Below the pieces are notes generated by a model. That model saw nothing but the letters and a program-made list of their open reading frames with translations. It did not search any database and was not told where the DNA came from. The position numbers and the translations under genes are program-made. Below, one piece after another: positions 7,708 to 59,088 of a stretch of DNA of 64,000 bases (its first letter is position 1; every line of letters starts with the position of its first letter). This DNA comes from Octopus sinensis (taxonomy: Eukaryota), in assembly GCF_006345805.1 (NCBI RefSeq), contig NC_043004.1, positions 50,902,001 through 50,966,000 on the forward strand, written 5' to 3'.

Positions 7708-7939
7708 CTTTTACTCTTTTACTTGTTTCAGTCGTTTGTCTGCGGCAATGCTGGAGCACCGCCTTTAGTCGAGAAAATCGACTCTAGGACCTATTCTTTT
7801 TTAAGCCTAGTACTTATTCTATCGGTCTCTTTTGCTGAACCACTGAGTTATGGGGACGTAAACACACTGGCGTAGGTTGTCAAGCGATGTTGAGAGACAA
7901 ACACAGACACACAAACATACACACACACACACCACATAC

Positions 7940-7972
<33 letters not shown>

Positions 7973-8008
7973 CATACATATATATATAATATACACATAT
8001 ATATATAT

Positions 8009-8067
<59 letters not shown>

Positions 8068-8493
8068 ATAAATATAATGAAGGCGGCAAGCTGGCAGAAA
8101 CGTTAGCACGCCGGGCAAAATGCGTAGCCGTATTTCGTCTGCCGTTACGTTCCGAGTTCAAATTCCGCCGAGGTCGACTTTGCCTTTCATCCTTCCGGGG
8201 TCGATAAATTAAGTACCAGTCACGCACTGGGGTCGATGTAATCGACTTAATCCCTTTGTCTGTCCTTGTTTGTGTCCTCTGTGTTTAACCCCTTGTGGGT
8301 AGTAAAGAAATATATATATACATATATACGACGGGCTTCTTTTCAGTTTCCGTGTACCAAATTTACTCACAAGGCTTTGGTCCGCCCGAGGCTTTAGTAG
8401 AAGACACTTGCACAAGATGCCACGCAGTGGGAATGAACCCGGAACCATGTGGTTGGTAAGCAAGCTACTTACCACACAGCCACTCCTGCGCCT
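7708..8493 (-). mobile_element. SINE family A split by a family B SINE inserted in its central (TA)n
   Basis: 3' half 7708-7925, 5' half 8325-8493, SINE B in between. Confidence 0.75.
8080..8310 (+). mobile_element. SINE family B (tRNA head plus Nin/Deu-domain-like core)
   Basis: GGCGGCAAGCTGGCAGAA A box, GAGTTCAAATTCC B box, GCCTTTCATCCTTCCGGGGTCGATAAATTAAGTACCAG core; more than 15 copies in window. Confidence 0.8.
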
Positions 8494-8885
8494 ATACACA
8501 TTTTGTATGGAAATTATATAGCCAGCACTGATTTTGTTACGACATTTCGTATCCGAGACGTCTGCTGTAAACAATAGAGTTCGAAGGTAATCGGCGTATA
8601 CGCCATATTCCAGGACTTTTTGCTCCTTCATCAGCACCCATCCAAGCCATTCATCGTCCACAAACACGTTGCTTACTTAGCTAATGAATATAGCGATGTA
8701 ACGTTATTGGTTATGACAATTTTACATATCAAACACATTCCTCGAAGCTTGTACGTAATGACCTCCAGGGACACCGTATTTCGGTATGCGATCAAAATAT
8801 GCTACAAAATATATTGAGCGTTTTTAAAAGTCAATACTCTGTTCTACTGCGTTACCAGTGCTATTACATCACTTGTTAAGGTTGT

Positions 8886-9236
8886 CTTACTCTTTTACTT
8901 GTTTCAGTCATTTGACTGTGGCCATCCTGGAGCAAAATCGACCGCAGGACTTATTCTTTGTAAGCCTAGTACTTATTCTATCGGTCTTTTTTGCCAAACC
9001 GCTAAGTTACGACGACGTAAACACATCAGTTTCGGTCGTCAAGCGATTTGGGGGGGATAAACACAGACACACAAACACACATATATACATATATACGACA
9101 GGCTTCTTTCAGTTTCTGTCTACCAATTCCACTCACAAGGCTTTGGTCGGTCCGAGGATATAGTAGAAGACACTTGCCCAAGGTGCCACGCAGTGGGACT
9201 GAACCCGGAACCATGTGGTTCGTAAGCAAGCTGCTT
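8886..9236 (-). mobile_element. SINE family A body; its head resumes at 11405-11443 after two insertions
   Basis: Matches the family A copies until 9236; remaining GTAAGCAAGCTACTTACCATACAGCCACTCC is at 11405. Confidence 0.8.
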
Positions 9237-9335
9237 TATTTCATGAAAATTCGCCATTAAGGCGTTACACAGAGGGGACATACAAGGACAGACAAACATA
9301 AAAGGGTGAAGTAGCTTAACGTAAGCAAGCTACTT

Positions 9336-11404
9336 TATTTCATAAAATTTATCCTCATAGACAGTACAAAGAGTGTGTAGCTTTGCGCGCTGGACAAACA
9401 CATTAATGAATGAAAATGAAATAGAATGAATAAATGAGAGACGAAACCCAACACCCGCCGATTGGATTTTTCTCGAAAACATATTTTCTTTTTTTAAAAA
9501 ATCAGTATGAGGTTTCAAACCTCTAACAAGAAGGAGGCACTAAAACCTCTTACTTAACATGTTTTTTTTAAACACACAACTGAGGTTATAAACCACTACA
9601 AATAATACAATAAGATGAGGTTTCAAACCCTATAACGAGGGCATTTCACCTCCTACACTTCGATATATCTATCGATATATTCATCATTATCTTCAATGCC
9701 GCTTGAGTTCCTGTATCCCGCCATTTCCCATGCCTCACTCATGTAGGACATGTAAGTCGTGTAAGGGCCACCCGGCCATATACAACACTCCTCCCCAAAT
9801 CCTTTAAGCCTTTTCCACAAGGGAAACCTTATGACCTCCACAGCTATCTGCGGAGGCCATTCGGGATCCCGTGTGAAGGGCATATCTACTGTCACTTTAT
9901 GTTCTTCTACTATTTTTTCCACCTCTCCGCCCTTATAGAAAAAGATAATTAATTAATCATCTTTAAGGGTGGGGGTGATTTCTTCCACCGTGGGTGGCAC
10001 AACTTCGGGACATGCAGACGGCACATCATCTCCCCGCTGAGATGACTCGTTCTTCTTCCTTCTTTTTTTCTTTTCTTCCTGACTTCGGGAGAGTGGAGCT
10101 CTTCCGCTTTGTCCAGAGACTCTCTCCCGCCTCCCGAAGCCTTAGGTTCCTTCGGCGGGCAACTATTGTTGCCCGCCTTCTTCCTTTTTAATCCTTTTTT
10201 AGTTGAGGAGGCTAAAGCCTCCTCGACCACATCCACCTCTCCCTCTGACCGGGTAGGGGAGGTGGCATCTAGTGACTGTTCCAGGACCTTACCATGGTTC
10301 TGGGGGCAGTTCCTTTTAATGTGGCTTGGCTGCAGGCACGAGTGACACTTGGGGGGACGTCCCTCAAGTATCACCGGATACCTGCAGCCAGCCATTTTCA
10401 AGAAATCTGGAAAAAACAGGTCTGTTGTGGCCGATGGGGTCCACAGGGTCAAAATCGCTTTTGACCCTTCCCAATCGACTGCCGGCAATACCCTTACATT
10501 TAAGAGCCTGGGTTCGCCATCCCCCAGTCCCCGTCGGATGGTATCTTCAATCCAATCCGCTTCGGTGCCTTGGGGCAACCCACATACCCAGGCTCTTATT
10601 AATTTCCTCTCGCAATATGACGGGAGGAGCAGAATTTCCTTGCCTTCTAAAGGCTGACTCGCAAACTGGCGAACCTTTTCCCCGTTGTCAAACAGCAACC
10701 ATACGGTTGCATGTTTGACATCACGGGATATATATTTTAAAGAGGACAAATAGTCTTTAAGTTCATTTTTTATAACTTGTTTTGGGAAGACGGTGATAGA
10801 ATTAAGAACTTTAGAATAAGTTCTAAGCACCATCGTCTTCTCCTCCATATCTTTTAACCACTGCTTAGGCGGGCTAATTTCCCACTCTAAGACAGAGTTT
10901 TTCTTTTTAAGTTCCTCCTCTGCCAGGTCAAAAAACAGTTCAAAAGTATTTCAAAAGACAGTCTGCCAAAAATTAAACCGAATAAAAATAAAACAAAATA
11001 AAGAGGGGAGGAAAACTGAAATTAAAGTAATGAAAAGAATGAACCAAAATTTAGAAAGAAAGAAAATAAGAAGGAAAAGTAAAGAAAAACCTCACAAAAG
11101 CACAACAGGGAATCCTTTGTATAATGCTCCTAAAGGTAATCCAAATGGCTTATTCTTGAAGTTCGGAAAAATTGTACTCTTTCTGGCGAGATACGCCCAC
11201 TAGAATTTACAAAAAGAATTTTCAAGCAAAAATTCTCAATTCACCGTTACGGTGATGAGAACCCAGTATTTTGCTCGCTATAGCGAGCCATAATTGACAA
11301 TTTTCTTTTTGTTCTCTTTTCTATTCACAGAGCCCCCCAAAAATCTCACATCTTGTCACTGTAACAGTCCAGACCAACTAGTGTTGCATTCTGGGTAACC
11401 GGAA
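9336..11404 (-). mobile_element. ORF1-only Tx1/L1-clade retroelement (HAL1-like) flanked by a 15-bp target duplication
   Basis: GTAAGCAAGCTACTT at 9321-9335 and 11405-11419; CCHC ORF1; no EN or RT motifs seen; 3' end ATGAAATAAA. Confidence 0.7.
9949..10848 (-). CDS. Gag-like ORF1 protein with CCHC zinc knuckle (likely continues by frameshift into 9653-9922)
   Basis: 299 aa ORF; YPVILEGRPPKCHSCLQPSHIKRNCP (C-x2-C-x4-H-x4-C) followed by a basic low-complexity tail, as in Tx1 ORF1. Confidence 0.75.
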   Translation of the reverse strand: MEEKTMVLRTYSKVLNSITVFPKQVIKNELKDYLSSLKYISRDVKHATVWLLFDNGEKVRQFASQPLEGKEILLLPSYCERKLIRAWVCGLPQGTEADWIEDTIRRGLGDGEPRLLNVRVLPAVDWEGSKAILTLWTPSATTDLFFPDFLKMAGCRYPVILEGRPPKCHSCLQPSHIKRNCPQNHGKVLEQSLDATSPTRSEGEVDVVEEALASSTKKGLKRKKAGNNSCPPKEPKASGGGRESLDKAEELHSPEVRKKRKKEGRRTSHLSGEMMCRLHVPKLCHPRWKKSPPPLKMIN

Positions 11405-12241
11405 GTAAGCAAGCTACTTACCATACAGCCACTCCTACGTCTATTGCCTCTACAAATTTTCTATAGAAATTATAACCAGCACTGATTTTCATACGGCGTT
11501 TCGTTTCCAAGACTTCTGATGTAAACAACAATGTTTTTTTCACCATTGTATGCAAAGCTCTATCTGAAAAGTTGCATAGTATTTGGTGTGTTATGTTACT
11601 TTTAGCAAGGTGGAACAGAAACAATGGTAGCTGGTCATTAAAGATGTGCTAAACTCTTTCTTTGCTTTCTTATTTGGACGCTGTACGATCGAGCGTGCGT
11701 GCGTGTGCGTGTATGTGTATATATGTGTGTCTAAGTGTGTGTGTGTCTTTGTATATGTGTGTGGAGGTGGAGGTGTGTACACACACATGCATACACGAAA
11801 ACACACACATACATACGTACATATACACGTACGCAGGTGCTATAATTCTAAAGTTAAATAGGTCTGTTTTCATCTTTCAATAAACAAGTTCTTTTATTGA
11901 CATGCTGTGAGTGATGTATTAAGATAATCTCCACATAGAAGAAATTTACGTTAATCTAACTCTACTTCTGCAGCGTTAAGACTCTTAATTGTTATAAACA
12001 CCACATCTTAAAAAATATAGCAGTTTGAATTATTAGACATGCTTGTATATTTGTATGCATATTTCTATATACACATGGGTTCTGTATGCGTGGTGTGTGT
12101 ATGTGTGCTGTGTGCATGTGTGTGTGTATGTGTACGTGCATACAGATACGCTCAGCCTCACATATATTAAATATATACTTTCATAGATGTATTTTTCTAT
12201 GTTTATATATATGTATGGTTATATATATATATATAATATAT

Positions 12242-12655: not shown

Positions 12656-13490
12656 GAAAATAGGTAAAAAGTGAAAAGACTACAGAAGGCTTGTTTAAAA
12701 GGTTAAAATTATATGTTTGAGTCAATATGTCTGAATAATATTATAAAATTTTTTTTCTTACAATGACATAGTTAGAAGAAATGACCGGTTTCGCGTTTAG
12801 CTTTTCAAATTTCTTACGTCGTTATGTTTATTTTGAGAAGAGTTATCGTTATGTTTATTGTTGAAGAGAGTTCTAGATAAGGGGAGGTATAAGTGATTTC
12901 TTCCGGTGTAAGGGAGATAATCGCTTAAAATTTTTGCCTTTCCTTTGGGGTGAATTCTCCTGTATAAGTATGTTGGAATGGTTAAGTCTGGGCTTGTACT
13001 TTTCAATGAAGAATGTTTCCTTGTTTAGTCTAGTTTGTGTTGATGTTCCGATAGCACATTGGTAAAATGGAAAGATTAAAAATTGTGGTAGTAGTTGCTT
13101 TGCGCATTTCTCAATGTGCTCACTAAAAGGTATCATTCTGTATTCTGGGAATGCAATCTGTTGTCGATGCAGTGTGCATCTACGTCTGAGTGATAGTCCC
13201 GTGGATCCCACGTAGTCTTGGTGGCAGCCCGAGCATTTTATGACATAAATTATGTTTTCAGAGGCACAAGTAAAATTAAATTTGATCTTGAATTTGGACA
13301 TGTTGCACAGTTCGGTCTACCACATTTTTTTACTTTTGCATCCGTAATTTCAGAAAGCAATTTTGCCTTTGTGAGAATCTTTTTAAGTGATTTAGGTTGT
13401 TTGTAGCTTTTAATGATTTGGTGTATGTTTAGAATTTCCTTTAATTTGGTGTCCTTATGAAGTATTGGTAAATTATGGGTGATGATGGTG
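12655..13490 (-). mobile_element. Penelope-like element 3' fragment (zinc finger plus GIY-YIG endonuclease, Neptune-like) with pLTR
   Basis: YKQPKSLKKIL..KKCGRPNCATCP, then FTCASENIIYVIKCSGCHQDYVGSTG..LRRR..LHRQQI..KETFFIEKYKPRLN (ORF 12873-13301). Confidence 0.9.
12776..12815 (-). ncRNA. Type I hammerhead, U3:A8 core variant, downstream of the Penelope ORF
   Basis: Minus strand AAGAAAT-TTGAAAA-GC-TAAAC-GC-GAAAC-CG-GTC-ATTTCTT; perfect 7-bp stem I. Confidence 0.8.
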
Positions 13491-14890
13491 AAGGCTTTGC
13501 AGCGTTTTTGAGTATGACGCCGCCATTGTTTGGTGAGCCTTGCTGAGATGGAGAAGCATGTGCGACAGCGACGGGGAGTCAGGTTTCCGTCGTCCCAAGC
13601 CTGCTGAAGCAATGCGAAATGCGGACCCGCAGACAGGTGAACACACAGACATGCAGCTGCAAATAGATGTGCAAGAACAGACACGTGATGGTGCAGAGTC
13701 GCAGAAGCAAGGAGGAACAGACATACAGACGCAGGAGGTGCACAAGAGCGGAATATATTTGATAGCATGTCGGTCAGCGCAAGATATAGAAGGGAAAATA
13801 ACTAAAAGGCTAGAAGGAACTTCCTAAAATATACACATGGCCCGAAAATCTCCTTTCTGAAGTTAAGGATGCTCCTTGATTCAAGGGAATTCTTTGCTAT
13901 TCTCACCCGTTCAGCTATACCTAATTTGCATCGTTTTGTCCTGTTGGTGTAGGGGCCTGCGTTCTCGAGAATTTTCCATCAGATCGAGTATGGAATGCCA
14001 TCGTCTCTCAGTTGGCATACGTGGCTGGCTAATGATGTTACGTATCTCCTTTCCGGAACTCTGAAAGAGGACCTGTGGTTGGAGACATGTTGCTTGAGAG
14101 AGAGTTTCCGGAACATCCACTGTATCACCGAGGACATGTGTTGTCGGCGCTGTGTCTGAATCTGCTGGTGCTGCTGTTGTTGCTGGAGCTGGGCCTACTG
14201 GTGTTGGTATCGCTGGAGGGGGTTGTGGAGGTGGTGATAATGGTATTGCCACTGTCAGTGATGGTGAAAGTGCTGTTGTTCTTGTCATTGTAGCAGAGTT
14301 TCCAATGCTGCTAGAGATGTCATTTGCGGTAGTTCTACTGGTGTTCCCGCTAAGGCCACTGTCGCTGCTACTGCTGCTATTATTATTGCATAATTCCCGT
14401 TATTACTTTTGGTGGCACTGATGGTGGTGACCAAAACCTTGTGAGTGAATTTGGTAGACGGAAACACACACACACACACACATATATATATATTGCCCGT
14501 ATTAATTATCCCTCACTAACAACTACACACACACACACACATACACACACTCACTCACTCACTCACTCACTCACTCACTCACGCACACACACACGCATGC
14601 ACGTACGTATGTATGTATGTATGCATGTATGTATATGCACATATTTTTATTTGATCAGTAGATGCTACAAAGTGACTCAAGGGGTCGACAGTTTCATCCA
14701 TTGGCACTTAACGAAGTTTGGTGTCAGTGCACAAAACTTTCTGTCTCTGAGACACTTCGTAACTTTTAGCGATTATATAAGTAATCTGCTGGTGCAGATT
14801 GGCATAGGAAGTTGGCATACGTCTTAAATTCAGTGTCTTGAGTTCTATTTTCCCATTTTAATTATGAAATGTATATACGAGTATGCATGT

Positions 14891-17195: not shown

Positions 17196-18793
17196 ATTTA
17201 TTATATAGAAGGAGCTTCTACAGGACTAGAACTGTTTCATTCAAGAGAAATCTTCAGGAAGCTAGTTAACAAGAATTGTATTGGCATTTATACATTTAGG
17301 CAGGTTTAACGGGGTGTTGGTGGGGGACTTTTTGGGGGTAGGCATAGCACAAAATATCATACTTGGGGGAGTGGTCAAGGAGTCAGTGTTAAATTAGATA
17401 GAAGAATAAATAAAAAAATAAAAAAATAAAAAATAAAAAATAAAATAAAAAAACCTATATATAAAAAAAAAAAACCTATATATAAAAAAAAAGGGGGGAT
17501 AGAGTTTTAGGTAAATAAGGAGATTCTCACTTATACCTATGCACACATGTATACATACATACACACACATACAAACATATATACATATACATACACACAT
17601 ACATACACACACATATATATACATATATATCACTGTACACATACACATGCATATACATATCTACACATACACATATATGTATACACACACACACTCACAT
17701 GCATACACGTATACACACATGTATATATACACACACGACCTCACATACCTATACGCACAGAAAAATATATATACACATACACACACATACTCACATACAC
17801 GCATACACACACATATCCACACACACACATGCACACACAGCACACTAGTCCCTATATACACATATATATACACATACACACACATATACACACACATACA
17901 TACATATACATACATGTATACATATACATATGTGTACCTATGCAAACCTACACATACACACATATATATACACATACTAATACAGACTTACTCATGGGTC
18001 TGTATTAGTATGTGTAATATATGTGTGTATGTGTAGGTTTGCATAGGTACACATATGTATATGTATACATGTATGTATATGTATGTATGTGTGTGTATAT
18101 GTGTGTGTATGTGTATATATGTGTATATAGGGACTAGGTGCTGTGTGTGCATGTGTGTGTGTGGATATGTGTGTGTATGCGTGTATGTGAGTATGTGTGT
18201 GTATGTGTATATATATTTTCTGTGCGTATAGGTATGTGAGGTCGTGTGTGTATATATACATGTGTGTATACGTGTATGCATGTGAGTGTGTGTGTGTATA
18301 CATATATGTGTATGTGTAGATATGTATATGCATGTGTATGTGTAAGTGTATATATATGTATATATATGTGTGTGTATGTATGTGTGTATGTATATGTATA
18401 TATGTTTGTATGTGTGTGTATGTATGTATACATGTGTGCATAGGTATAAGTGAGAATCTCCTTATTTACCTAAAACTCTATCCCCCCTTTTTTTTATATA
18501 TAGGTTTTTTTGGGTTTTTTTTTTTATATATATAGGTTTTTTTATTTTATTTTTTTATTTTTTATTTTTTTATTTTTTTATTTATCTTCTATCTAATTTA
18601 ACACGACTCCTTGACCACTCCCCCAAGTATGATATTTTGTGCTATGCCTACCCCCAAAAAAGTCCCCCACCAACACCCCGTTAAACCTGCTAAATGTATA
18701 AATGCCAATACAATTCTTGTTAACTAGCTTCCTGAAGATTTCTCTTGAATGAAACAGTTCTAGTCCTGTAGAGCTCCTTCTATATAATAAATA
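17196..18793. repeat. Fold-back inverted repeat, arms about 790 bp, 10-nt spacer
   Basis: 17196-17987 is the reverse complement of 17998-18793; spacer TTACTCATGG. Confidence 0.9.
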
Positions 18794-23277: not shown

Positions 23278-24070
23278 ACTTTATTTTAAGCAGCAGAAAA
23301 TTCAACAAAAATCTGTTACTCTGAGTTTCTGTTGCGTTCTCAGACAGTTTTTGCTAGAATGGAATATATATCAATTCAATCTATACTCTTACAAACGCTA
23401 CACCTTTAAAAAGAAATGGACTTGTTTGATTGGCCCTTTAGAAAAAACGGTCAATCTTCGAGCGATAAACAAAAAGGTCAAAAATATATGTATATATATA
23501 TAAAAAAACTTATAAAAATTATAAAATCCGAGGAAAAAACCGAGGAAAAAACCTATTGCCGTTAATGAAGACAGTACAAATTAATGCATAGAAATAAACC
23601 TGTTATAAATACTGCAATACATATTTATATTAAAATCCACATATATATATCAACATACACAAAAGGATGCGCGTAAACGCTTTTGTGTATGTTGATATAT
23701 ATATGTGGATTTTAATATAAATATGTATTGCAGTATTTATAACAGGTTTAATTTCTATGCATTAATTTGTACTGTCTTCATTAACGGCAATAGTTTTTTC
23801 CTCGGTTTTTTTCCTCGGATTTTATAATTTTTATAAGTTTTTTTATATATATATACATATATTTTTGACCTTTTTGTTTATCGCTCGAAGATTGACCGTT
23901 TTTTCTAAAGGGCCAATCAAACAAGTCCATTTCTTTTAAAGGTGTAGCGTTTGTAAGAGTATAGATTGAATTAATTATATGTTCCATTCTAGCAAAAACT
24001 GTCTGATGAACGGCAACGAGAAACTCAGAGTAACAGATTTTGTTGAATTTTCTGCTGCTTAAAATAAAGC
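23278..24070. repeat. Fold-back inverted repeat, arms about 390 bp, 14-nt spacer
   Basis: 23278-23665 is the reverse complement of 23680-24070. Confidence 0.9.
23995..24041 (+). ncRNA. Type I hammerhead motif (indel-bearing mirror copy at 23308-23352, minus strand)
   Basis: CTGT-CTGATGA-A-CG-GCAA-CG-A-GAAAC-TCAGA-GTA-ACAG. Confidence 0.65.
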
Positions 24071-31750: not shown

Positions 31751-31804
31751 CATTTCTATGTATATATATATATGTGTGTGTGTGTGTATATATATATATG
31801 TATT

Positions 31805-32032
31805 TCTTTACTGCCCACAAGGGGCTAAACATAGAGGGGACAAACAAGGACAGACAAAGGAATTAAGTCGATTACATCGACTCCAGTGGGAAACTAGTAC
31901 TTTATTTATCGACCCCGAAAGGATGAAAGGCAAAGTCGACCTCGCGGAATTTGAACTCAGAACGTAACGACAGACGAAATACGGCTACGCATTTCGCCCG
32001 GCGTGCTAACGTTTCTGCCAGCTCGCCGCCCT
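31805..32032 (-). mobile_element. SINE family B (same tail variant as 8080-8310)
   Basis: Family match. Confidence 0.8.
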
Positions 32033-46500: not shown

Positions 46501-46555
<55 letters not shown>

Positions 46556-46559
<4 letters not shown>

Positions 46560-46952
46560 GTTATCGCCATACTAATATGGCATTCTTATAAAAATAAGAA
46601 TAAAGCTGTCCGCTTATTAGCTCCATGAGGCCATCGCCTTAAGTTAGCTATTTGATACACAAACTGTATCCATATAACCTTCGAACAAGGGAGGTCAGTC
46701 GCTCCACACTACTTGACCGGCAGCTACAGACGCGTTTCGGGGTATTGCCCCTTTTCAATGCAGCGTAGCCAGCCAGTAGGTGTCGCTTCCGACAATCTCT
46801 GTTCGATGGTTTTATTTACCTAGTTTCAGTGGAATACATCCACTTGTTTTCAATAATAGAAATATTAAAATTACTAAGTCTCTCTAAAAGAGAACAGCGG
46901 CAGCGTTCCCGGAAAATAATAGTTATCGCCATACTAATATGGCATTCTTATA
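46556..46952 (-). mobile_element. Inverted 1.1-unit copy of the 362-bp hammerhead repeat (hammerhead at 46723-46764)
   Basis: Reverse complement of the 47099-48452 unit; TTATCGCCAT at 46561 and 46923. Confidence 0.9.
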
Positions 46953-47069
46953 AACACTCACAACGCCCGGTCTGGGAATCGAAACCGCGATCCTACGACC
47001 GCGAGTCCGCTGCCCTAAGCACTGGGCTATTGCGCCTCCACACACACACACAAACACACACACACATAC

Positions 47070-47100
<31 letters not shown>

Positions 47101-47101
47101 C

Positions 47102-47143
47102 GCTGCATTGAAAAGGGGCAATACCCCGAAACGCGTCTGTAGC
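47102..47143 (+). ncRNA. Type I hammerhead, U3:A8 variant (unit 1; predicted cleavage after 47137)
   Basis: GCTGCA-TTGAAAA-GGGG-CAATA-CCCC-GAAAC-GC-GTC-TGTAGC. Confidence 0.82.
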
Positions 47144-47463
47144 TGCCGGTCAAGTAGTGTGGAGCGACTGACCTCCCTTGTTCGAAGGTTATATGGATAC
47201 AGTTTGTGTATCAAATAGCTAACTTAAGGCGATGGCCTCATGGAGCTAATAAGCGGACAGCTTTATTCTTATTTTTATAAGAATGCCATATTAGTATGGC
47301 GATAACTATTATTTTCCGGGAACGCTGCCGCTGTTCTCTTTTAGAGAGACTTAGTAATTTTAATATTTCTATTATTGAAAACAAGTGGATGTATTCCACT
47401 GAAACTAGGTAAATAAAACCATCGAACAGAGATTGTCGGAAGCGACACCTACTGGCTGGCTAC

Positions 47464-47505
47464 GCTGCATTGAAAAGGGGCAATACCCCGAAACGCGTCT
47501 GTAGC
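47464..47505 (+). ncRNA. Type I hammerhead, U3:A8 variant (unit 2; cleavage after 47499)
   Basis: Identical motif; stem I extends via GGCTGGC/GCCGGTC and CTACT/AGTAG. Confidence 0.85.
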
Positions 47506-47825
47506 TGCCGGTCAAGTAGTGTGGAGCGACTGACCTCCTTTGTTCGAAGGTTATATGGATACAGTTTGTGTATCAAATAGCTAACTTAAGGCGATGGCCT
47601 CATGTAGCTAATAAGCGGACAGCTTTATTCTTATTTTTATAAGAATGCCATATTAGTATGGCGATAACTATTATCTTCCGGGAACGCTGCCGCTGTTCTC
47701 TTTTAGAGAGACTTAGTAATTTTAATATTTCTATTATTGAAAACAAGTGGATGTATTCCACTGAAACTAGGTAAATAAAACCATCGAACAGAGATTGTCG
47801 GAAGCGACACCTACTGGCTGGCTAC

Positions 47826-47867
47826 GCTGCATTGAAAAGGGGCAATACCCCGAAACGCGTCTGTAGC
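47826..47867 (+). ncRNA. Type I hammerhead, U3:A8 variant (unit 3; cleavage after 47861)
   Basis: Identical motif. Confidence 0.85.
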
Positions 47868-48187
47868 TGCCGGTCAAGTAGTGTGGAGCGACTGACCTCC
47901 CTTGTTTGAAGGTTATATGGATACAGTTTGTGTATCAAATAGCTAACTTAAGGCGATGGCCTCATGGAGCTAATAAGCGGACAGCTTTATTCTTATTTTT
48001 ATAAGAATGCCATATTAGTATGGCGATAACTATTATTTTCCGGGAACGCTGCCGCTGTTCTCTTTTAGAGAGACTTAGTAATTTTAATATTTCTATTATT
48101 GAAAACAAGTGGATGTATTCCACTGAAACTAGGTAAATAAAACCATTGAACAGAGATTGTCGGAAGCGACACCTACTGGCTGGCTAC

Positions 48188-48229
48188 GCTGCATTGAAAA
48201 GGGGCAATACCCCGAAACGCGTCTGTAGC
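48188..48229 (+). ncRNA. Type I hammerhead, U3:A8 variant (unit 4; cleavage after 48223)
   Basis: Identical motif. Confidence 0.85.
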
Positions 48230-48448
48230 TGCGGTCAAGTAGTGTGGAGCGACTGACCTCCCTTGTTCGAAGGTTATATGGATACAGTTTGTGTATCAAA
48301 TAGCTAACTTAAGGCGATGGCCTCATGGAGCTAATAAGCGGACAGCTTTATTCTTATTTTTATAAGAATGCCATATTAGTATGGCGATAACTATTATTTT
48401 CCGGGAACGCTGCCGCTGTTCTCTTTTAGAGAGACTTAGTAATTTTAA

Positions 48449-48564
<116 letters not shown>

Positions 48565-48626
48565 TGTATGTATGTATGTATGTATGTTTGTATGTAAGTA
48601 TGTGTGTGTGTGTTTGTGTGTGTGTG

Positions 48627-48929
48627 TGGAGGCGCAATAGCCCAGTGCTTAGGGCAGCGGACTCGCGGTCGTAGGATCGCGGTTTCGATTCCCAGACCGG
48701 GCGTTGTGAGTGTTTACTGAGCGAAAACACCCAAAGCTCCACTAGGCTCCGGCAGGGGGTGGTGGCGATCCCTGCTGTACTCTTTCGCCGCATCTTTCTC
48801 TCACTCTTTCTTCTGTTGGCCTGCTCGCTTAGCCAGCGGGGTGGCGTCATTTGAAGGCTAAAAACAATGCGAAGCGCATTGTGACCAGCGACGTGTAGCA
48901 ACATCTGATCGCCTGGTCGGTCATGTGAT

Positions 48930-58672: not shown

Positions 58673-59088
58673 ACTCTTTTTACTCTTTTACTTGTTTCAG
58701 TCATTTAACTGCGGCCATGCTGGAGCACCGCCTTTAATCGAGCAACTCAACCCCGGGACTTATTCTTTTGTAAGCCCAGTACTTATTCTATCAGTCTTTT
58801 TTGCCGAACCGCTAAGTAACGGGGACATAAACACACCAGCATCGGTTGTCAAGCAATGCTGGGGGGACAAACACAGACACACAAACACACACACGCAAAT
58901 ATATATATATATATACATATATACGACAGGCTTCTTTCAGTTTCCGTCTACCAAATCCACTCACAAGGCTTTGGTCGGCCCGAGGCTATAGTAGAAGACA
59001 CTTGCCCAAGGTGCCACGCAGTGGGACTGAATCCGGAACCATGTGGTTGGTAAACAAGCTACTTACCACACAGCCACTCCTGCATCTA
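58673..59088 (-). mobile_element. SINE family A
   Basis: Full-length family match. Confidence 0.85.

Follow-up and report, generated by a model that had tools for sequence, protein, structure and literature searches.

Several long interspersed nuclear elements (LINEs) of the Tx1 clade are described as inserting into other transposons, such as Tx1L in the piggyBac element Tx1D, Tx1-Mar in Mariner-N4_AMi, and Tx1-9_AMi in a Harbinger element, while Tx1-8_Crp and Tx1-4_AMi target long terminal repeat (LTR) elements (PMC4494074). The targets known for non-LTR elements in general include rRNA, tRNA, snRNA, and spliced-leader genes, microsatellites, telomeres, and other transposable elements (PMC8869645). 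Other non-autonomous LINEs, namely HAL1 (half-L1), HeT-A, and Ag-Sponge, encode only the first open reading frame, ORF1 (PMC5786205; PMC5753468). In this study, we describe a locus of Octopus sinensis (assembly GCF_006345805.1, contig NC_043004.1) in which one copy of an abundant short interspersed nuclear element (SINE), here called SINE A, is split by two inserts, A and B, that lie between copies of one 15-nt target sequence. The whole stretch analysed, positions 50,902,001 to 50,966,000 of the forward strand (64,000 nucleotides), is referred to as the window, and coordinates count from its first letter. The reading that we favour, with moderate confidence, is that insert B is a dead member of an ORF1-only, HAL1-like family, that insert A is a truncated member of another family, and that both were moved by a site-specific LINE, probably of the Tx1 clade.

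Like the transposon-targeting Tx1 elements, the octopus inserts appear to be non-LTR elements placed repeatedly at a fixed position in a commoner transposon, as tandem or nested copies; unlike them, they occupy the head of a tRNA-type SINE between its promoter boxes, lack ORF2, reside in a cephalopod, and belong to a clade that we infer. Insert B resembles HAL1, HeT-A, and Ag-Sponge in measuring about 2 kb, in consisting of a 5′ untranslated region (UTR), ORF1, and a 3′ UTR without a reverse transcriptase (RT), and in being multicopy and 5′-truncated. Its ORF1, however, is of a predicted RRM-RRM-CCHC kind and not of the mammalian Transposase_22 type found in HAL1, and the available text of PMC5786205 and PMC5753468 does not describe HAL1 as site-specific, in contrast to what we propose for insert B. 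In the crocodilian SINEU and Tx1-Mar elements, a common Tx1 partner passes its target preference on to several non-autonomous families (PMC4494074), much as we suggest here. The octopus differs in that a SINE is what is hit and not what is carried, and in that ORF1 is encoded by the main passenger. Insertion at a fixed base within a multicopy small-RNA-like sequence is also a feature of Keno, Utopia, and Dada; their targets are functional host genes, whereas the octopus target is a dispensable SINE, and the inserts differ further from Dada, which belongs to the DNA transposons, and from Utopia, which carries a restriction-like endonuclease (RLE).

Octopus vulgaris offers candidates for such a partner: its L1-Tx1 families with recent activity number 13, have a mean length of about 5.4 kb, and account for 421 insertions and 2.29 Mb (PMC13282606, Table 1), and Dong-R4, CR1, RTE, Hero, and R2 families have been recently active as well. 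The supplement of that paper names 80 L1-Tx1 families, and the words "target," "nested," and "HAL1" are absent from it. In the literature outside Repbase, Dfam, subscription papers, and the Zenodo library of PMC13282606, we found no report of a LINE that targets a SINE head or of an ORF1-only passenger with such a target, and such elements may already be catalogued; the available portions of PMC12988792 and PMC4758252 mention neither a SINE-head-targeting LINE nor an Octopus family of this kind. What would be new in the octopus inserts is their target; the strategy is a known one, and no novel mechanism is involved.

Structure of the split SINE

All parts of the locus lie on the minus strand. 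The 5′ start of the SINE A head (11420–11444) is 90% identical to intact heads, and the downstream part, which comprises the body and tail (8886–9221), is 76–83% identical to full-length copies in the window such as 58680–59064. Between them the 15-mer occurs three times, starting at 9222 (G variant) and at 9321 and 11405 (A variant), as a sequence-only reading of this DNA had reported. The same reading had placed between these copies an 84-bp and a 2.07-kb insert that share their minus-strand end and are co-oriented with the SINE, and this description is upheld: insert A (9237–9320) measures 84 bp, insert B (9336–11404) measures 2,069 bp, the minus-strand end of each is ATGAAATA, and both have the orientation of the host SINE. 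With both inserts and two of the 15-mers taken out, what is left (about 8886–11444) is an ordinary SINE A. The inserts are bounded by 15-bp target-site duplications, of which the middle copy (9321–9335) is identical to the upstream copy (11405–11419) and the downstream copy (9222–9236) differs from the other two by one base. No terminal repeats were seen in a self-BLAST. The duplications, the lack of terminal repeats, the 5′ truncation, and the A-rich 3′ end are the characters of non-LTR elements inserted by target-primed reverse transcription (TPRT).

When up to two mismatches are allowed, the 15-mer has 11 matches in the window, three at this locus and eight in uninterrupted SINE A copies. 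The 27-nt junction formed by the 15-mer and the insert end occurs twice in the window, both times at the locus (9222 and 9321), against a chance expectation of 0.00; two occurrences were reached in 0/100 shuffles.

The target site and its use

SINE A is abundant, with 17 BLAST matches to its head region in the 64 kb and a contig depth in the millions. Its head was not recognized as a tRNA, since ARAGORN found 0 tRNA genes in the window and Rfam returned no tRNA among five weak matches. By eye, and by comparison with the consensus, we take 11431–11421 to be an A-box-like motif and 9205–9196 to be a B-box-like motif of SINE A, and the target 15-mer lies between the two. In a neighbouring SINE A copy with a similar right flank, the target site is empty (8456–8470). 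The neighbour and the split copy (7710–8574 and 8877–11528) share an 85-bp right flank (82% identity, 8490–8574) and a 9-bp left flank; either the locality was duplicated long ago, or SINEs inserted separately into two copies of some other repeat.

Further evidence on the use of the site comes from contigs of four public sequencing runs, taken from the best 24 of 1,284 loose ends, the best 15 of 94 joints, and the best 12 of 87 rows of table 5c. The right flank of the split SINE is itself repeated, as the loose ends of about 76–102 contigs fall at 11448/11489. One single-copy contig carries a third type of 3′ end next to the target (27/37 letters like insert A, by eye), and another contig joins 9629 to 11409, as a 5′-truncated insert B at the same site would. 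Moreover, in 4/4 runs the depth at 9347 is above that at 9351 by about 280–640 single-copy units, an excess that calls for contigs anchored partly on the 15-mer; in 3/4 runs, contigs with the 9351/9354 variants extend by 31–35 letters and end at 9319–9320, just past the duplication. At least two, and probably three, different 3′ ends are thus found at one SINE A site. The chance that two families, assumed to have 1,000 copies each, would share one base anywhere in 2.8 Gb is about 2e-4, and routes by read-through or template jump would still require a donor at the target site. An element has been classed as target-specific when more than 20% of its flanks are of a single sequence type (PMC4494074); here, target flanks were observed for 2/2 inserts of the window and in two single contigs. 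Insertion into the SINE head is very probably site-specific, and we hold a preference for this site in SINE A heads to be likely.

The sequence-only reading had spoken of one element that hit the site twice. Repeated use of one site stands, whereas the two inserts turn out to belong to different families, and the copy of insert B is dead. For TPRT-type insertion, an ORF1-only structure, and a SINE-head site used repeatedly, the contigs of the four runs provide independent support.

Insert B and its ORF1

Insert B consists of a T-rich 5′ UTR of 478 nt (10927–11404), which multicopy contigs cover in 4/4 runs, ORF1 (9949–10926), a second open frame of 99 codons (9653–9952, with the codons at 9952–9656), and a T-rich 3′ UTR of 317 nt (9336–9652). 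Its 3′ end together with the first target bases reads AATAAA, and there is no poly(A) or microsatellite tail. In the 3′ UTR, a near-palindromic B-box-like motif was observed twice, at 9507–9521 and 9615–9629 (88% over 25 nt). A scan for the motifs of an apurinic/apyrimidinic-type (APE) endonuclease and of RT found none in the three minus-strand frames, whose longest open frames are 333 and 99 codons. The window copy therefore answers to the definition of an ORF1-only element, in which ORF1p is encoded and endonuclease and RT are absent.

ORF1 would encode two RRMs (about 10875–10612 and about 10614–10357) and a single CCHC knuckle (10350–10300), followed by a low-complexity tail. It had been proposed earlier that the insert is ORF1-only with a CCHC motif. 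The lack of endonuclease and RT motifs agrees with this; however, ORF1 begins at 10926, where the window copy has CTG, upstream of the methionine at 10848, and there is the second frame of 99 codons. As to the CCHC motif, the knuckle falls under the Pfam cut-off (E 0.13–0.17), yet it is clear in the alignment, where zf-CCHC was found at E ≤ 1 in 14/20 members. We conclude that a start codon has been lost at 10926 because an O. sinensis protein also aligns upstream of the first methionine, and the base that forms ATG at this position makes up 99.7–100% of the contig depth in 4/4 runs. ORF1 of the window copy is probably frameshifted near an A-run at about 10060. Among the best-supported 40 of 174 differences from the contigs, 27 lie inside reading frames; those in ORF1 comprise 16 replacement and 3 silent changes, where 30% silent changes would be expected without selection, and therefore point to neutral decay of this copy. 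Insert B is a dead copy.

ORF1 matched one of 737 candidates, and this nearest protein is the O. sinensis LOC115225585 (58% identity, E 5e-96). The full scan gave 19 relatives, of which 11 were looked up; 8 of these proved to be named Octopus proteins, and the other three are clusters on contigs of 1.7–2.2 kb. No relatives and no copy of the junction occurred in metagenomes, viral contigs, or prokaryote genomes, a result that animal DNA would give in any case and that carries no weight. An AlphaFold model built from 20 sequences (mean pLDDT 80.6) shows two RRMs, and Foldseek matched it to tandem-RRM proteins (best E 7.5e-5). With VIA-align, residues 18–105 were superposed on La (Z 8.1, rmsd 2.8, 81 aligned) and residues 110–189 on Prp24 (Z 8.1, rmsd 2.3, 70 aligned); these Z values are middling, and the top rows agree on the RRM fold. 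L1 ORF1p structures were not among the fold matches listed, which decides nothing. From the model, ORF1 is predicted to be an RRM-RRM-CCHC protein, that is, a Type I ORF1, which is compatible with Tx1 and not diagnostic of it; Type I ORF1 proteins of non-mammalian animals are described as consistent with the Tx1 clade and not as unique to it (PMC5203782). ORF1 also gave matches to the ZCCHC3 domain (0.90), whose link to Tx1 ORF1 would be tentative.

LOC115225585 is an annotated gene with three RefSeq protein accessions. It has lost the first cysteine of the knuckle and ends at the point where ORF1 of the window copy reaches the A-run. It may be either an expressed copy of the family or a co-opted gene.

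The second frame has a coding-like composition and is probably the broken C-terminal part of ORF1. A homology to the C-terminal parts of three Octopus relatives of ORF1 looked plausible by eye; it was dropped, as the frame lay outside the top 8 matches and several of 1,000 shuffles of its own sequence scored higher. The frame had no match among proteins of 175–2,000 aa or PDB sequences, and a Pfam scan of 76 of its codons (all but the first 23) returned 0 families. A single-sequence model of it (pLDDT 35) was uninformative. Peaks of depth at 9821–9897 and 9667–9743 suggest that a commoner, diverged subfamily is closest to insert B in these parts of the second frame.

Insert B as a family

Parts of insert B were found in 20/24 listed runs, from 11 studies and under 4 organism labels. 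None of these runs is recorded as RNA, and they have no bearing on expression. The best word share was 0.44, and therefore the nearest copies should be about 97% identical. In the contigs of four of the 24 runs, 30/30 bins of insert B were covered in each run, and the collapsed contigs stand at about 27–55x single-copy depth (median of the long listed pieces). In 4/4 runs the depth at the 3′ end is 6–10x that at the 5′ end, a gradient that we ascribe to 5′ truncation. Other copies, 5–12% diverged, are colinear with insert B over 9434–9813 and 9824–10405, and among the listed pieces no break of the size of an ORF2 is seen in them. Among the rows listed, the only internal cluster of loose ends in insert B lies at 9879 (18 contigs of one run); by eye, its letters read as an in-frame, diverged version of the second-frame peptide, and judged by these letters it seems to represent a second subfamily. 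The evidence leans toward the form without ORF2 being an amplified family and not a private deletion.

Insert A, a second family

Beyond the terminal AATTTT(C/T)ATGAAATA, inserts A and B align poorly. The tail of insert A is related to that of another abundant element, SINE B (93% over 30 nt, 31829–31858). One contig of one run extends insert A upstream of 9320 by 213 unrelated letters, and at 9300 one or two contigs reach about 40–85x single-copy depth; therefore, insert A is the 5′-truncated 3′ end of a longer multicopy family, either a SINE or a LINE. It is not a fragment of insert B. The bases at its 5′ end were also considered as an inverted piece of the target, which is ruled out, as the contig carries them and runs on upstream.

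A weak candidate for an RT-recognition hairpin lies at 9252–9264 of insert A (a 4-bp stem and a 5-nt loop in the minimum free energy fold). Inspected by eye, a diverged relative and two SINE B tails retain the pairing although bases on both sides of the stem differ; no significant 3′ structure emerged when inserts A and B were folded. Both window copies of the SINE B form with an insert-A-like tail (8080–8311 and 31801–32010) abut (TA)n microsatellites, and one of them lies inside a SINE A, within its internal (TA)n. It is possible that microsatellites are targeted by a related machinery.

Other features of the window

The minus strand at 12873–13768 carries what is probably the decayed remnant of a Penelope-like element, in pieces that match GIY-YIG weakly (E 0.002, below the cut-off). 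At 46554–48716, several stretches of 150–400 bp recur with 100% identity, both inverted and in tandem; an array of satellite type, a fold-back element, or an artefact of the assembly could explain them. Long inverted repeats at 17217–18772 (280 nt at 98%) and 23406–23940 (193 nt at 96%) are possibly related to miniature inverted-repeat transposable elements.

Discussion

In the route that we infer, the partner of inserts A and B would be a site-specific LINE whose ORF2, with an APE endonuclease and an RT, is supplied in trans and binds the 3′ end common to both. Its endonuclease would nick the plus strand of the SINE A head at CTT^ACC, the freed 3′-TT would pair with the terminal AA of the RNA and prime reverse transcription, and a second nick 15 nt away would give rise to the target-site duplication. 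TpA steps are where L1-type endonucleases nick. Of the two inserts, A was probably the earlier, and B would later have used the site regenerated on the head side; this order fits the identity of the two 15-mers nearer the head and the single-base difference of the third. As the site lies between the A and B boxes, each insertion should destroy the internal RNA polymerase III promoter of the SINE copy. Tx1 is the most likely clade of the partner, a label that we hold with less confidence than the reading as a whole because there is no RT to be placed in a tree and because an ORF1 with RRM and CCHC is not unique to Tx1.

Several observations weigh against this reading. A protein profile search did not find the ORF2-bearing partner, and the order of insertion rests on one substitution. 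Because copies cannot be counted from summed contig depth, the size of the insert B family can be put no more exactly than at tens of copies. The interval 9813–9824 is bridged by none of the listed pieces that have 31 letters on either side, and no piece spans the whole element. The contig with the third 3′ end and the contig that joins 9629 to 11409 are single records of one run and may be short-sided joints, which often derive from repeats, and the left side of the latter joint ends in a B-box-like motif and could be a variant SINE. The depth at 9347/9351 and the ends at 9319–9320 are indirect evidence. Finally, the hairpin of insert A has an ordinary folding energy (z = −0.47), and insert B forms a looser version of it at best.

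Among other explanations, it is improbable that the true target is a tRNA gene (in the D-arm/anticodon region), with the abundant tRNA-derived SINE head acting as a decoy, a case in which the mechanism would be unchanged and the biology different. The 15-mer does lie between what we take, from the consensus, to be A- and B-box-like motifs, but the head was called by neither ARAGORN nor Rfam and hence has diverged from tRNA genes, and the observed junctions match the SINE sequence itself, even if site-specific non-LTR elements are described at rRNA, tRNA, and snRNA genes (PMC8869645). To a similarly small degree we would credit insert B with being a private or rare internal deletion of an autonomous site-specific LINE, of which insert A may be a truncated end. 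Such a deletion could have left the second frame where a remnant of ORF2 might be expected, and both the unbridged interval at 9813–9824 and the 18-contig cluster at 9879 would suit it. However, the diverged copies are colinear on both sides, depth shows no gap, the letters at 9879 read by eye as the diverged in-frame peptide and not as RT, the second frame is unmatched among the proteins of 175–2,000 aa and in PDB, and a fusion of ORF1 to a long protein was not found (0/5,682 candidates of 1,092–3,115 aa matched the ORF1 profile, a weak test). Least probable of all, in our judgement, is an absence of specificity, in which one ancient insertion into a SINE gave a composite that later multiplied as a unit, either through segmental duplication or through retroposition by read-through, while the second insert arose as a local accident. 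The repeated flank to the right of the SINE would favour a composite, yet two unrelated inserts have their own full duplications at one base, where a third 3′-end type is found too, the 5′-truncation gradient indicates many separate events of reverse transcription, and the neighbouring SINE with the same flank has an empty site.

A further alternative concerns the clade only and overlaps the reading that we favour: the partner might belong to another clade with RRM and CCHC (L1 proper, L2/CR1, or I/Nimb), or to a site-specific RLE-type clade acting on a borrowed 3′ end. We regard this as unlikely, though it has the best claim of the alternatives. The single knuckle, the 15-bp duplication, the proposed TpA nick, and the AATAAA end without a tandem-repeat tail would fit L1/Tx1 better. 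A Type I ORF1 is not diagnostic, as noted above, and R4/Dong elements are abundant in Octopus, with Dong-R4 among the families recently active in O. vulgaris (PMC13282606); on the other side, Type I variants in non-mammalian animals are consistent with Tx1 (PMC5203782), and the targeting of transposons is documented for Tx1 (PMC4494074).

Taken more broadly, the preferred reading of a site-specific LINE that moves both inserts would make the locus one instance of a guild of Octopus retroelements, a picture to which we give an even chance. In such a guild, an ORF1-only family with at least two subfamilies and at least two short-tailed families related to the SINE B tail would share one site-specific LINE machinery, whose endonuclease would be tuned to one base of the most abundant SINE head of the genome. 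The SINE, present in vast copy number, would then serve as a safe harbour, and its RNA polymerase III promoter would be switched off with each insertion. SINEs make up 11.6% of O. vulgaris DNA (PMC13282606). If true, this would be a clean case of transposon-on-transposon parasitism in a SINE-rich genome, it would offer a testable route from the targeting of tRNA genes to the targeting of SINEs, and it would predict an APE endonuclease with a new sequence specificity.

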